NCBI GenBank assembly: GCA_964016885.1
Contig: OZ024740.1
Coordinates: 413,912,001-413,976,000 of the forward strand
Length of the DNA: 64,000 nucleotides
Direction of reading: 5' to 3'
Source of the DNA: Eledone cirrhosa
Taxonomy: Eukaryota
Shown here: positions 4,888-53,757 of the stretch, piece after piece
Numbering within the stretch: the first letter of the stretch is position 1
Layout: each line of letters starts with the position of its first letter
The notes under the pieces: model-generated
Told to the model about the DNA's origin: nothing
Database searches by the model: none
Seen by the model: only the letters and a program-made list of their open reading frames with translations
Program-made: the position numbers and the translations under genes

Positions 4888-4975
4888 TCATTATAATTAT
4901 TTCCACGGTTCTCCATACAATCTAGATGTCCTTGTTGCATTTTCTGTTGATTCTGAGAACGGTATCCTCAGATGA
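4888..4975 (-). ncRNA. Type I hammerhead ribozyme with extended (61 nt) stem II
   Basis: tcat-CTGAGGA-taccgttctc...gagaaccgtg-GAAA-T-AATT-ATA-atga. Stem I 4 bp, stem II 9/10 bp, palindromic stem III loop. Confidence 0.8.
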
Positions 4976-6504
4976 GATAACCGATATTTTTGATATGTCA
5001 CTGGCAGGAAAAGACACACGTCCTATTGCTTGCGTGCCCAGCAGACATATGAGTTCCTTGAAGGGTTTGCCAGCCGTCGTGTTTGCTAGAAAAAGCTATC
5101 AACGAAAAAAAATGAAAAGAACGAAAAGCTGTGTGTAGCCAAAGCCCAGTAGACAGTAGAAGCAATAAATGGCGCTCTGAGGGAGGAAGGGTGGGGTACA
5201 TATTTTCTTGACAATGACCTATAGACAACAACTACTACAACAACAACAACAACAATAACGACAACGACAGCAACAATAACAGCAAACCGCCGACCAATAT
5301 TGTCCACACTGGCCGCAATAGTCGTAGTGATATTACCACTTTACTGACAACACCAACTAAAGCAACAGCTACAGTAAACACTTACAACAACAACAGCAAC
5401 AACGACAACAACAGCAAAACCACAGACCAGCGTCGTGTACACAGGCCGTAGCAGTCGTAGTGACGGTATCACCGTGTCGACAATAACAACGATAACGCCA
5501 AAGCTATAAACAGGAGTTCAGAGTTAGGTTGGTACACAGAGTTGGTGGTATGAATCACCGTGACCATACATAGTAACAACACCAATAGTAACGTCAACAA
5601 ACAGTAACACCACCCATTATCCACCCCGTTCGTCGTAGTAGTGGTGGTATCATTTATATTAGTATCAAGCCAATGACAGAGAGCACCCATTACTCGGGAG
5701 CCAGACAATGGTAACACCAGTAACAATAACAACAACAATAGCAGTGATGATCCCACCACAGTGACGGCAGCAACAGGAAAAGGCGACGCTTCCATGAAAA
5801 ATAAACTAACGTTGAAACAACGAAGCGAAAATAGGATAGAAATATAGATGGGTTTTTATATATATAAATAATTACATGCACAGTTAATACAGTCCTCTCT
5901 ATCATTCTAAGGCACAAGGCTAGTAATAATTACAGTGCAGATAAATAGTTAACCACAATAGCATTTAGCTTTAACTACAGTGGCAACAATACTATTAAAA
6001 GAGCTGTTAGACTATAGAAGAGAGTTACGGGATGCGAAAGTAGGGACAGGAACAAGCGGATAAGAAATCGAGAACACATATAGAGAACATAATAATAAAA
6101 GAACGGGACAAAAATAAATAAAAAAACAACAGTAGGTATATAAACAGAGAATAAGTAACAAGGGACATGAAACACGTACAACAGAGACTCCAGGTGTGCA
6201 AACAAGATATCCATGGTTCGCTTGACTCTGGAGTTGTTGTGTGACCACGCCCAGCTCCCACGTCAAGTTTGCTATAGTCCTCAACTAGTACAACTATGTT
6301 GTTAGTCCGCACAGTTTTACGAAGGTTCCAGATGTTCTGTGGAGGCAGATGCTGAAGAGGTTACTCCTTTTATTGATAACTCGAGTTCACCTCTCGATTA
6401 TTTCCATAATCTCGGTGACACACAAATCGCATGAGTCATGTCCACCCCCTCTGTAGTGTTGGGCTGAGGCTACCTTGGACCACGACAAGGTGTATTCTAC
6501 GTTA

Positions 6505-6842
6505 TGTTTGAGACGCCACACCATTTCTGAGAGCGCGGTACTGTATTTCTTATCAATTCTCCTAAAGGTGTGGCTGTGATTGCACCATTGTTCCTTAAAT
6601 TTATTAGCTGTGGCTGCGATATGGGTGAAGGTTTGGTTGTTGGCATTCACCCTACATTCATATACTGAGCCCCTGTTTGAGACGCCACACTATTTCTGAG
6701 AGGGCGGTGCTGTATTTCTTATCAACTCTCCTAAAGGTGTGGCTGTGATTGTACCAGCGTTCCTTAAATTTATTAGCTGTGGCTCCGATATAGGGTGAAG
6801 GTTTGGTTGTTGGCATTCACCCTACATTCATATCCTAAGCCA
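6505..6842. repeat. ~169 bp tandem duplication within the GIY-YIG region of PLE A
   Basis: tgtttgagacgccacac recurs at 6505 and 6674 with near-identical downstream sequence. Confidence 0.9.
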
Positions 6843-50333: not shown

Positions 50334-51329
50334 ATATATATATATATATATATATATATATATATATATATATATATATATATATATATATATATATATA
50401 TATATATATATATATGTATGTATGTATGTATGTATGTATATGTATATATATATATATATATATATATATATATATATATATATATATATATATATATATA
50501 TCGCGATAAATTAATGGAGCCATAGACTATCGCTCTTCTATTCCCTTATAACAGACTTTCCTCTCTCTCTCTATTTGGTTGAACACACTTCTCGGAGCGG
50601 TTTGGGCTGCCCTTTCTAGTAGCTCGTTCCTCAGAGGCCACTGGTTACTGCACTAGGCACGCTATGAATTCTCTCTCCCGCGTGTGGCTGGATGGTCGCT
50701 TTTGATTCTATTAGAGTTGTCTGAAATGTATAGCCTTACACGCGCTGATGAACCATGGGCTAATCATTTCTGTCAACAACTTATTTGGCGATACAGATCT
50801 TTTTAGATTTGTACGTGTGTGTTAGATAGTTATCGAGATATGTATTTACACTTTAATTTATATTTTTAATTATTGTGTGACTACTCTGCCTTCCATAGGC
50901 TTTAGATTCCATACACTGGTGGTTTTTCCCTGTTTGATTGATGGCGCACTATCTCTCTCTCTCTCTAGTGTGTTATCTTTTCAACATATTGTATTATATA
51001 TATATATATATATATATATATATATATATATACATATGTGTGTGTGTGTATATATATATATATATATTGTTATACTTGGGGAGGATCATATTGTTGTATA
51101 TATATAGTAATGATAATAATAAATGTGAAGACTAAAATATATATATCTAAATATACACAGTTCAAGAGTAACCAATCTTAAAGAGAGAGATGGAGATAGG
51201 AGATGAGATATGAGAGGAGAGATTGGTGAATTAGTTAGAAGCCAAATCGTAAAGGCATGTGCTCAATGTGCAATATGCAGTAGAAAGCAGCTAGGTGGCT
51301 GGGCTCATGCAGAAGTTAAGTGCGCAGAG

Positions 51330-53757
51330 CTGGAAATATTCATTAGTTAAGCAAAACAAGACCACAAATTTCACAAGGAAGACATTATTAAAAGATTGTC
51401 AACATATTTTAGTTTGATGTAAGGAATGTAGAGAATAATATTAATAATAATAATATTAATAATAATAATGTCCGTTTACAATTGTTTCGCTACTCCATAT
51501 ACTATTTCTGGATCAGATGACTATATATCAGAATTGATCTGGTTCAGTTGAAAATAATTAACATATTTAAAAGACAGAGTGGTTCATCGGAACTTCAAAG
51601 GAATATAAATTAAAATAATGAGAGAATGTTACATAATATAATGTTCCATATATTGGTTTTTCACTATGGTGTCTTGGTTGCGTCAGTTGTCAGCCAGAAT
51701 CAAGCAGTATTCATCTGTCGAGGCTGCATTGTGTGAGATCTGCCTATGGGTAACAAGATGGCTGCCAAAGGATATATTTACCTTACTAATTAGAGGGTGG
51801 CTTCAGAGGAAGTAACTCCTCGAGAGATTAGAAATTGTGGGTATTTATAGTTAAGTGCTAATTTTTAATTTTTTTAATTGAGAGACAATGTAGGGCAGGT
51901 AACTTATAATTATCTAAGTTGTTCATAGCTATTTAACTTATTAGCTACAAGTAAAAATGGGGCTGGATGACTAAGTTGGGTCAAATATTCTATTGGCGAA
52001 GGAATTAGCCCTTCGATGTTGACAGCTAATAGTTACTTCCGTTCTATCGTTAATCGGTAGAGGTCGTGATAGAGTTATGTAATATGCTTCTGTAATACAG
52101 AGATCACAAGATTTTCTTCGTCCATTGAACGGTTGGGCCCTAGCCACGAGATCCCATTTTAGTGAGTGTTGAACTTTGTTTAATTTAAGGTTTTTAATGA
52201 GCCTAGCTAGCGATGTCGAACATCTGTTGCTAGGGTCTCGGAAGGAAAAAGAGTGCGCGTTATAGCGTAACTTAAAAGGGTTAGAGGTAGACCCGATATA
52301 AGAGCTGGTATTCGAAGCAGTTTTAACCGTGCACCTATAGACTATGCTGGGTGTCAGGCAGTGTCCATTTAATGGGCATGCATTGGGGTAACGGCAGTTA
52401 TCGTTGCTTCTGCGGTTAGTGAGAGTAGGGTAGTTTAACCTAAGCGGTAGGTCAGTGCTAGAAGGATTAGATGGGGGAGGTGTGCTACTAGTGTAATTAT
52501 TGGTGTAGTGGCGTGGTGTATTTGATAGGGGTGGTGCTACCGCGGTGTGGGAGTTATACTGTCTTAGTTTATGATGGTTACTGAATGCGATGTGGCTAGC
52601 TAGGTTAGGTGTTGTGGAGAATGAGATTTTAATGTTATTTTTATTAAAGAGTTTGTAATATCTATGGTTGGGGTGGAAATGTTTAGATAGGATAGAGAAG
52701 AAGCGTTTGGGGATATTAGTGGCTAGATTAGATGAGAATGGGGGGGGGGGTTAAGCCAGGTGATATTTGTAGGTCTATTCCTTCTACGGGTTCTAGTGGA
52801 GTTGGTAGTGGCTTTCCTAGGGTTATTATTACCTGGGGATTTGTTATTTGTCATCCCATTTCTCATTCCTATTCTAGGGTTGATTTTTAGTTTGCTACTT
52901 GGAGTGGGCAGCAGGCCGCTGCCACCATTAAACTTCCCTGTATAGGTGCTGTTACTGCTAAAATTCCGGCGAATCTGGCTATATGCTTAGGTATTTCTAG
53001 TTCCAGTGTTAAGTTTATTATGGTGAATTGCTGTGTTATGGCATTTAGGTATGTAATAAATTGATTGTTCATAACCAGATTCAGAAAGTGCCTTATTATA
53101 ATATTGTGCATGGTTTATAAATATCTCCTCATTTGCTGATAGCATTGAGATCCTATACGAGATAGATTTGATTACTGCTCTGATGACTGCCGGTGGGTGG
53201 TTAGAGTGTGGGCTAATATATGTGAGTATTTCACTTGGTTTATGGTAAGGGTAATATAAGTTATTGTTGAGATCCAGGGTGACGTCTAGGAAGTTTATTA
53301 CTTTTATGGTTCGGCTAATTAGTGATAGAGAGACCGTTATTTTTAAAGAATCTATGTAATTGTTTTTTAGCAAATCGATGCCTCGATTAGTGCAATTGTG
53401 GACTGCAAATATGGCGTCGTCCCTGTATATCCCGCCTTGCAAGGGTTGGATTTCGGCTCTGATGTTATGTAATAGGTAAATTCCAACTAAATCGTTGATT
53501 TGCGCGGAGTCACTTGAGCCCATCGTAATGTCAAAGTTGTCTGTTCTATCTTTTCTAGTCCAGAGTGCTCCGTTGAATTCAATGATAGTCTGCCTAGCCA
53601 TAAGTATGATGTTAATCTCATTATTGGTTATGTCCGAGTTGGTGCTGGCTAAGGTTAATGCTTTATTGAGCAGTTCCGGGGTTATTGACGCGTAATAGCT
53701 GTCGATGTCAAATTCGATGAACCTCATAGATTGCTTGGACCTTAGATCAGATAACCA
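51330..53757 (-). mobile_element. 5'-truncated Penelope-like element G (RT, linker, GIY-YIG, pLTR); frameshifted
   Basis: FIEFDIDSYYASI..FDITMGSSDSAQINDLVG..GGIYRDDAI..INFLDVTLDL..SNHPP; then NCRYPNACPLNGHCL..IVYRC..YIGST..FKLRYNAH..LKWD..CDLCITE at ~52080-52400. Confidence 0.93.
51474..51593 (-). ncRNA. Hammerhead-like motif with extended (95 nt) stem II, U4C
   Basis: gtt-CCGATGA-accactc...gagtagc-GAAAC-AATT-GTA-aac. Confidence 0.55.

Follow-up and report, generated by a model that had tools for sequence, protein, structure and literature searches.

Minimal hammerhead ribozymes (min-HHRs) have been described near the 3' ends of metazoan Penelope-like elements (PLEs), where they combine type I topology, a CUGANGA/GAAA core, a stem I of 4–5 bp, an extra base after A9, and a stem III whose short palindrome lends itself to dimer formation (Cervera and De la Pena, 2014; PMC4209133). 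Their helix II has 7–8 bp, and the published descriptor allows a stem II of 3–7 bp with a loop of 3–10 nt, so not more than 26 nt (PMC4209133). Here, hammerhead ribozyme (HHR) motifs of PLEs are analyzed in a 64,000-nt stretch of the Eledone cirrhosa genome (GenBank assembly GCA_964016885.1, contig OZ024740.1, positions 413,912,001–413,976,000, forward strand), herein referred to as the window. These motifs share the listed features of PLE min-HHRs, although stem I is weak in M4 and short in M6 (see below). The segment between their core halves, domain II, measures 61–95 nt in the window, and copies elsewhere in the genome reach 116 nt. Because this length exceeds the 26-nt descriptor, they represent a variant of the PLE hammerhead and not min-HHRs.

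The host elements resemble PLEs of the Hydra clade in their C-terminal endonuclease (EN), CxCX5C linker, DKT motif, absence of CCHH, (TA)n targets, and HHR with a GAAAC..GUH half (Craig et al., 2021; PMC8557442). Unlike the inserts described here, the Hydra HHRs tabulated in that work, including Hydra-1_Obim, have a loop 2 of 3–10 nt. A precedent is provided by the spike-moss elements PLE-X1_sMoe and PLE-X1_sTam, with HHRs that have an enlarged loop 2 (35 and 28 nt, respectively) and were flagged as non-canonical (PMC8557442). Yet these are two EN-minus families of a plant, and domain II of PLE-X1_sMoe, about 54 nt, is shorter than in most families found here. Additionally, the descriptors of Arkhipova (2017) allowed longer loops (according to PMC8557442), and long loops in rotifers may already be on record. 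Core halves split by a long insertion are also known from the active discontinuous Clec2 HHR of mammals, but there the insertion has several hundred nt and the ribozyme is a single copy in the 3' untranslated region (UTR) of a host mRNA (PMC6765202). The HHR of the anole PAc element (Poseidon) cleaves only with the element's protein, and in vitro insertion does not require the ribozyme; unlike the motifs described here, it has a short stem II, belongs to the Poseidon clade, and overlaps the start of the open reading frame (ORF) (PMC11167929). In the literature search, which covered the sources cited here in part, no description of HHRs with a 50–116 nt stem II in animal PLEs was found.

Hammerhead Motifs in the Window

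An earlier note on this DNA had listed six pairs of core halves, here M1–M6, as HHRs with an expanded stem II. All six were found where claimed on the minus strand, with spacers of 61, 53, 87, 90, 82, and 95 nt, and the stem III tetraloops AATT, ATAT, and AAGT are present as described. Five of them (M1, M3, M4, M5, and M6) are fixed in repeat families, and M2 is an artefact (Table 1). First-look searches of the genome gave 1169 candidate relatives for M1 (best matches 90–93%), 27 for M3 (69–86%), 707 for M4 (98–99%), 1886 for M5 (93–97%), and 884 for M6 (95–98%). The type I core C3UGANGA9...G12AAA...U16H17 is exact in M1, M3, M4, and the M5 family. The window copy of M5 reads CUGAUGU (A9U) and its family CUGAUGA, and nearly all examined copies of M6 have CCGAUGA (U4C). 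The self-complementary segment of stem III (A15.1–U16.1) is perfect in ATAATTAT, ACATATGT, and ACAATTGT; in M3 it has one mismatch in the window copy and is perfect among the relatives. The pairing ascribed to most motifs was found for stem I of M1, M3, and M5, shrinks to 3 bp in M6, and is limited to one core-adjacent pair in M4. At the base of stem II, 9 bp in M1 and 9 of 10 pairs in the M6 family were recognized by eye. As the note had stated, the inserts are mutually dissimilar overall (|z| ≤ 1.7 in all 10 pairwise comparisons). The Rfam scan returned no hammerhead model among the matches listed (150 of 199).

M2 (7959–8040) was rejected as a motif. Its relatives match only positions 1–93 of the query, and the alignment stops at window position 7978. 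The GAAA half starts at this same position, the breakpoint of an inverted 5'-truncated copy (7795–7978 mirrors 8413–8560) that derives from the same element's 3' end. The window reads CTCTGAAG at a site where the relatives read CTATGAAG (all 15 other rows among the best 16 of 20 rows, the window included). Half-cores are paired by a junction of this type also at 32930–33036.

Table 1. Positions of hammerhead motifs, related copies, and coding remnants in the window
Feature	Positions	Strand	Remarks
M1 HHR, core C3 to H17	4892–4971	-	Domain II 4964–4904, 61 nt; basal helix 9 bp; stem I 4 bp
M2, artefact	7964–8035	-	Antisense UTR with a private base change, fused at 7978 to an inverted 5'-truncated copy
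M3 HHR	8769–8874	-	Domain II 8867–8781, 87 nt; stem I 6 bp; old family
M4 HHR	37347–37455	-	Domain II 37448–37359, 90 nt; weak stem I; young family
M5 HHR	39450–39550	-	Domain II 39543–39462, 82 nt; predicted rod with bulged-A motif; A9U here
M6 HHR	51477–51590	-	Domain II 51583–51489, 95 nt; U4C core; stem I 3 bp
True short HHR of the M2 element	8389–8427	+	20-nt domain II; family linked to Hydra-type EN
Inverted 5'-truncated copy of the M6 3' end	53759–53837	+	Begins inside domain II; M2-type junction
Ordinary short HHR, other family	63573–63617	-	26-nt domain II; internal comparison
Broken reverse transcriptase (RT), thumb, and Hydra-type GIY-YIG EN pieces	6318–7428	-	Upstream of M1; tblastn
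Thumb, CxCX5C linker, and EN of the M4 element	38132–38698	-	
RT and C-terminal GIY-YIG EN of the M6 element	51971–53769	-	RT 52987–53769, then EN 51971–52750; ends 380 nt before the HHR

Short HHRs that belong to other PLE families, and are missing from the original list, also occur at 16540–16590 and 13397–13466, both on the minus strand; the latter has lost G12.

Abundance in the Genome

The 3.0-Gb genome was sampled as 120 evenly spaced 10-kb stretches (1.2 Mb), and pairs of core halves were counted if their stem III was near-palindromic and at least 4 of 5 stem I pairs formed. For spacers of 7–30, 31–45, 46–60, 61–80, 81–100, 101–130, 131–160, and 161–200 nt, the numbers of hits were 78, 21, 20, 7, 7, 10, 1, and 2, respectively, versus a mean of 0.5–1.9 per bin in eight dinucleotide shuffles. 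The excess of long spacers over shuffled sequence expected in the earlier note is thus present: 44 hits at 46–130 nt versus a mean of 3.5. After tandem and inverted repeats were collapsed, a domain II of 46–130 nt was found in 30 of the 92 HHR insertions, a few of the 30 being mis-pairings (e.g., L133 and L146). The proposed expanded-stem-II class is real and lies outside the published min-HHR descriptor, but its lengths form a continuum of 11–116 nt in the sample and not a discrete class.

In the whole genome, four exact patterns gave 3587, 5415, 12,590, and 10,817 matches versus 2, 12, 13, and 0 for the reversed patterns; pooled, these are 32,409 copies with 40–125 nt spacers versus 27, in a comparison that leaves repeat amplification uncorrected. 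The stronger argument comes from at least ten unrelated families, in each of which the stem I arms match each other in a sequence of their own and occur together with a palindromic stem III, a closing stem II, and the same position in the element; the matching arms argue for a non-chance origin of the motifs.

A search with the insert only gave 5205 matches versus 0 reversed. The 3' core half is present in 28 of 30 loci chosen in this way and the strict 5' half in 16; the other 14 comprise 11 core variants, 2 truncated copies, and 1 intact half outside the search window. In the non-redundant copies (23 of the 30), the expectation that the core would be better conserved than its flanks holds clearly for the 3' half (0.95 versus 0.81 in the downstream flank), while the 5' half reaches only 0.83. 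Conservation drops to 0.64 for the stem II 5' arm and to 0.52 upstream, the latter value being lowered by copy truncation, so that the core is better conserved than the stems and the upstream sequence. Taken as a whole, the motifs are very probably a real expanded variant of the HHR.

The Host Elements

The elements are PLEs, as the earlier note had proposed, and their motif marks place them in the Hydra clade. The RT is followed by a C-terminal GIY-YIG EN without CCHH and with CxxC and CxH around E and N. The DKT motif and the CxCX5C linker are present across copies; the first C of the linker is absent from the window copy of M6 and present in its relatives. For the N-terminal RWK motif, there was one doubtful regular-expression match, the N-termini lying mostly outside the loci. 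Atlas neighbours of the EN include GIY-YIG clusters, and one named EN relative comes from Argonauta hians. None of 20 ORFs matched Pfam, and the search for longer homologous proteins found none.

Insertions are located in (TA)n or AT-rich repeats, with M6 ending in ATT repeats, and the copies are 5'-truncated and in some cases inverted. The window copy of M5 is 5'-truncated and has no ORF at this locus. In M1, the (TA)n end follows about 40–45 nt after H17; the M4 element continues for about 60 or 150 nt past H17 and the M5 element for 60 or at least 200 nt. Among 174 long HHRs examined, an EN within 1.7 kb was found on the sense strand in 23 cases and only on the antisense strand in 5. Hydra-type ENs in this genome precede both short (20–38 nt) and long (61–101 nt) HHRs.

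The 3' tails observed at 37200–37290, 39250–39390, and 51250–51450 are optional and range from about 90 nt to at least 140 nt, exceeding the 30–40 bp described for PLEs. The 60 nt that follow the cut site of the M5 clade (window 39380–39445, minus strand) are conserved across subfamilies and contain a small AAUAA...UUAUU hairpin and a UGUAYAGCCAACCAUGU-like motif, a possible RT initiation signal. Further remnants of Hydra-type RT/EN are located at 18517–20870 (plus strand) and 14786–15544 (minus strand).

Predicted Structure of Domain II

The suggestion that the insert is a structured domain was borne out in most families by the predicted fold, an irregular rod, and in the M5 clade by covariation; M1 and M6 are exceptions. 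Of the 10 valid family rows, 8 have a domain II that is more stable than dinucleotide-shuffled sequence, with median z from −2.4 to −4.4 (−1.0 to +0.7 in upstream controls), namely the M5 clade, M4, L288, L255, and the 101–116, 95, 62, and 51 nt families; at most 8 copies per family were folded, and 2–3 for two families.

For the M5 clade, copies were retrieved with a pattern that excluded the insert, and a rod was drawn by eye on 25 sequences. In this set, 86.1% of the cells are paired versus 78.9% in shuffled alignments (reached in 0 of 500) and 29–41% in slid ones, and the basal pairs of stem II are kept in 88%. Both sides change at 8 of 18 rod pairs and at 4 of 5 stem I pairs; double-changed pairs number 13 versus 10.2 shuffled (27 of 500). 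In 35 held-out copies, left of 36 after an empty one was dropped, pairing is 84% in the rod (33–49% slid), 87% in basal stem II, and 82% in stem I, the slid values spanning 14–49% in all. On the inner branches of a tree of a larger set, 3 double changes were counted versus 0.39 expected (P = 0.006). The covariation support for the M5 clade is real but moderate.

About 20 nt up the M5-clade rod lies a motif of ten columns, GUAUU/UAGAC with a bulged A. Its columns have 0.40 changes per column on inner branches versus 1.7–3.9 in other insert columns, and on terminal branches they show ordinary decay (2.1 versus 2.3–3.4). The motif, as GUAUUG/UAGAC, recurs in M3 relatives and in L310-type families and is not found in M1, M4, or M6. 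In the 46–52 nt family, basal covariation was seen by eye: GCAAUG/CAUUGC, GUAAGG/CCUUAC, GAAAGG/CCUUUC, and GGAAUG/CAUUCC. A covariation scan of 28 sequences found no contiguous extra helix that could represent a loop 1/loop 2 contact, single hits being confounded by ancestry, and no pseudoknot between the insert and its flanks.

The stem I 3' arm of M4, AAUACCUA, could instead pair with the complementary UAGGUAUU of domain II (37340–37378, minus strand); such an alternative fold would obstruct the ribozyme. In M6, the corresponding arm can pair with the first bases of the core.

Length of Domain II on the Endonuclease Tree

The EN tree has 39 rows, including accidental EN–HHR neighbours (L023, L104 d30, L096 d122, and L183), and its backbone is mostly unresolved. 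Although their proteins are deeply diverged, the M5, M4, L288, and L255 families, with domain II of 83–92 nt, group in a single EN clade (99/97). M6, M1, and the 101-nt family fall outside this clade; M1 (61 nt) is sister to a 36-nt family (86/90), and M3 is placed on an unreliable long branch. One old expansion with further independent ones is the likely history. Growth would have taken place in this host lineage and probably more than once, since stem II tolerates additions.

For comparison, 79 of 519 Hydra-like loci were obtained from metagenome contigs. An HHR was found 3' of the ORF in 44 of the 79, and 24 of the 35 loci without one hold at most 300 nt of 3' sequence. With up to 150 nt allowed, domain II has 10–30 nt in all 44. 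Because these HHRs and the loops of published Hydra elements (Craig et al., 2021; PMC8557442) are short, the expansion looks lineage-specific, with a smaller precedent in plants. A link between the long stem II and the Naiad "HHR_half_core" was considered and is unsupported: Naiad_Ovul, by eye, has GAAA before CUGAUGA.

Proposed Mechanism and Alternative Explanations

We favour, with some confidence, the explanation that the motifs are type I HHRs at the 3' ends of Hydra-clade PLEs, with a stem II of 60–95 nt that is predicted to form a rod, and that they likely cleave as dimers helped by the element's protein. An intact core, a self-complementary stem III, stem I (weak in M4 and short in M6), a position after the EN, and fixation in families of thousands of copies are established. 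The geometry of the HHR core is unaffected by the length of a closed stem II, where engineered aptamers are usually grafted; in the Clec2 HHR, the insertion lies outside stem II. As the rod is predicted to be a self-contained hairpin, the core halves would still meet. The rod would close first, bringing CUGANGA beside GAAA. In a tandem transcript, two HHRs could join through their palindromic stem III segments, in the way suggested for PLE min-HHRs. Same-strand copies about 3.0–3.6 kb apart occur among the genome matches. The element's protein may chaperone the HHR fold, by analogy with the anole PAc element, and the M5- and M3-type families may keep the bulged-A site for docking that protein or as a tertiary contact. 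Most active families can be expected, with reasonable confidence, to be catalytically competent. The rod is probably, in the main, a self-folding tolerated extension that has become a protein-docking site in some clades; whether the insert does anything beyond being tolerated is evenly balanced. A grafted and selected RNA domain, in which the bulged-A rod would dock the telomerase-like RT/EN protein, switch cleavage on or off in the ribonucleoprotein, and help set the stop of the RT, seems rather doubtful; if true, it would be a natural protein-gated hammerhead in more than 30,000 copies.

Several observations weigh against the favoured explanation. In the young and abundant M4 family, stem I is weak in all 46 copies counted. 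The U4C variant of M6 and the A9U subfamilies were amplified, and U4C lowers HHR activity in vitro (PMC3088659). Copy starts do not cluster at the cut site in M4 (1 of 45 near); in M6, copy ends say little about the cut site because of the ATT repeats. The downstream flank at 20–70 nt is conserved nearly as well as the 5' core half. As to folding, domain II of M1 and M6 behaves like shuffled sequence (median z −0.2 and +0.1) and that of M3 is weak (−0.8, 7 copies); five window copies are no more stable than shuffles (z −0.74 to +1.42), the forced HHR fold lies 3–7 kcal/mol above the free fold in window copies, and in M6 it did not form basal stem II. RNAalifold alone recovered only 6 pairs of the M5-clade rod. 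On the tree of 25 M5-clade sequences, the double changes give P = 0.10, and on the inner branches of the larger set there are 11 breaks besides 17 one-sided pair-keeping changes (P = 0.13 for the kept fraction).

A catalytically retired HHR, the fold of which is kept for recognition by RT/EN at the RNA 3' end while cleavage is dispensable or lost, would also fit the weak stem I of M4, a very successful family, the amplified U4C and A9U subfamilies, and the copy ends away from the cut site. In line with this, mutants of the PAc HHR insert normally in vitro, and its cut site lacks RNA-seq ends (PMC11167929). However, the catalytic positions are intact in tens of thousands of copies and in unrelated families, stem I covaries in the M5 clade, and both U4C and A9U are known in functional natural ribozymes, so that retirement appears unlikely. 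A somewhat better case can be made for an HHR that works with a jobless insert: slippage or template jumps would make stem II grow, and selection would ask only for harmless self-folding. The continuum of lengths, the interleaving of long and short families on the EN tree (such as M1 and its 36-nt sister), the unrelated insert sequences, an internal 9-nt duplication in the 113–116 nt family, and the ordinary stability of the M1 and M6 inserts all agree with such growth. It does not account for the GUAUU/UAGAC motif, whose sequence is kept on inner branches and is found again in M3 and L310-type families, or for the 83–92 nt length kept over four diverged families, and we regard it as possible but not the leading explanation. 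Half-cores of AT-rich repeats that came together by chance and multiplied along with the repeat would be another source of such motifs. Chance pairing did occur at M2 and at 32930–33036, and the reversed-pattern controls do not correct for such amplification. As a general explanation it is extremely improbable, because it is refuted for five families by fixation and covariation (the latter in the M5 clade), and the unrelated families with their own stem I arms speak against it.

Other Repeat Families and Copy Junctions

In the 99–116 nt family, head-to-head pairs have 7–15 nt between the cores in 9 of 28 cases and at most 54 nt in 13 of 28 (including L472–L480 and L483–L485). The junctions are mostly distinct and lie in the 5' arm of stem I, some with stuttered arm repeats, which suggests that the RT stops or jumps at the 5' edge of the ribozyme in this family. 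Close head-to-head pairs make up about 1 of 20 in another exact-pattern set counted by hand and are hence family-specific; a truncation hotspot in stem I was sought as a general feature and was clear in one family only.

Tandem arrays of about 556 nt are retrozyme-like, with an HHR of 51-nt domain II in each unit (10,817 pattern matches; e.g., L159:235–5800, minus strand), and several subfamilies cap the rod with cUUCGg. No ORF could be linked to the 46–52 nt tandem families. In L210, a 310-nt tandem array carries an HHR with a 14-nt domain II on both strands, an ordinary retrozyme-like repeat. An 18-nt HHR family (L004, L132, L137, and L162) is located about 205–310 nt after the stop of a CCHH-type PLE endonuclease, which we take to be Neptune-like. 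At 44686–47873, the window contains about 3 kb of degenerate (ACC/CAC)n with stop-free frames of up to 1025 codons, probably a microsatellite.

Implications

Five of the six motifs were right, and the phenomenon is general in this genome. For the role of the hammerhead in PLEs, and the help it receives from the element's protein, a removable stem II domain with a conserved site gives a handle: unlike short HHRs, a large stem II could let cleavage be separated from protein recognition. Counts based on descriptors miss a third or more of the HHR insertions in some genomes, and the genome of Eledone cirrhosa contains tens of thousands of such motifs invisible to standard searches. Since descriptors miss long spacers, claims that an HHR is absent from a PLE family should be examined again with long spacers allowed.

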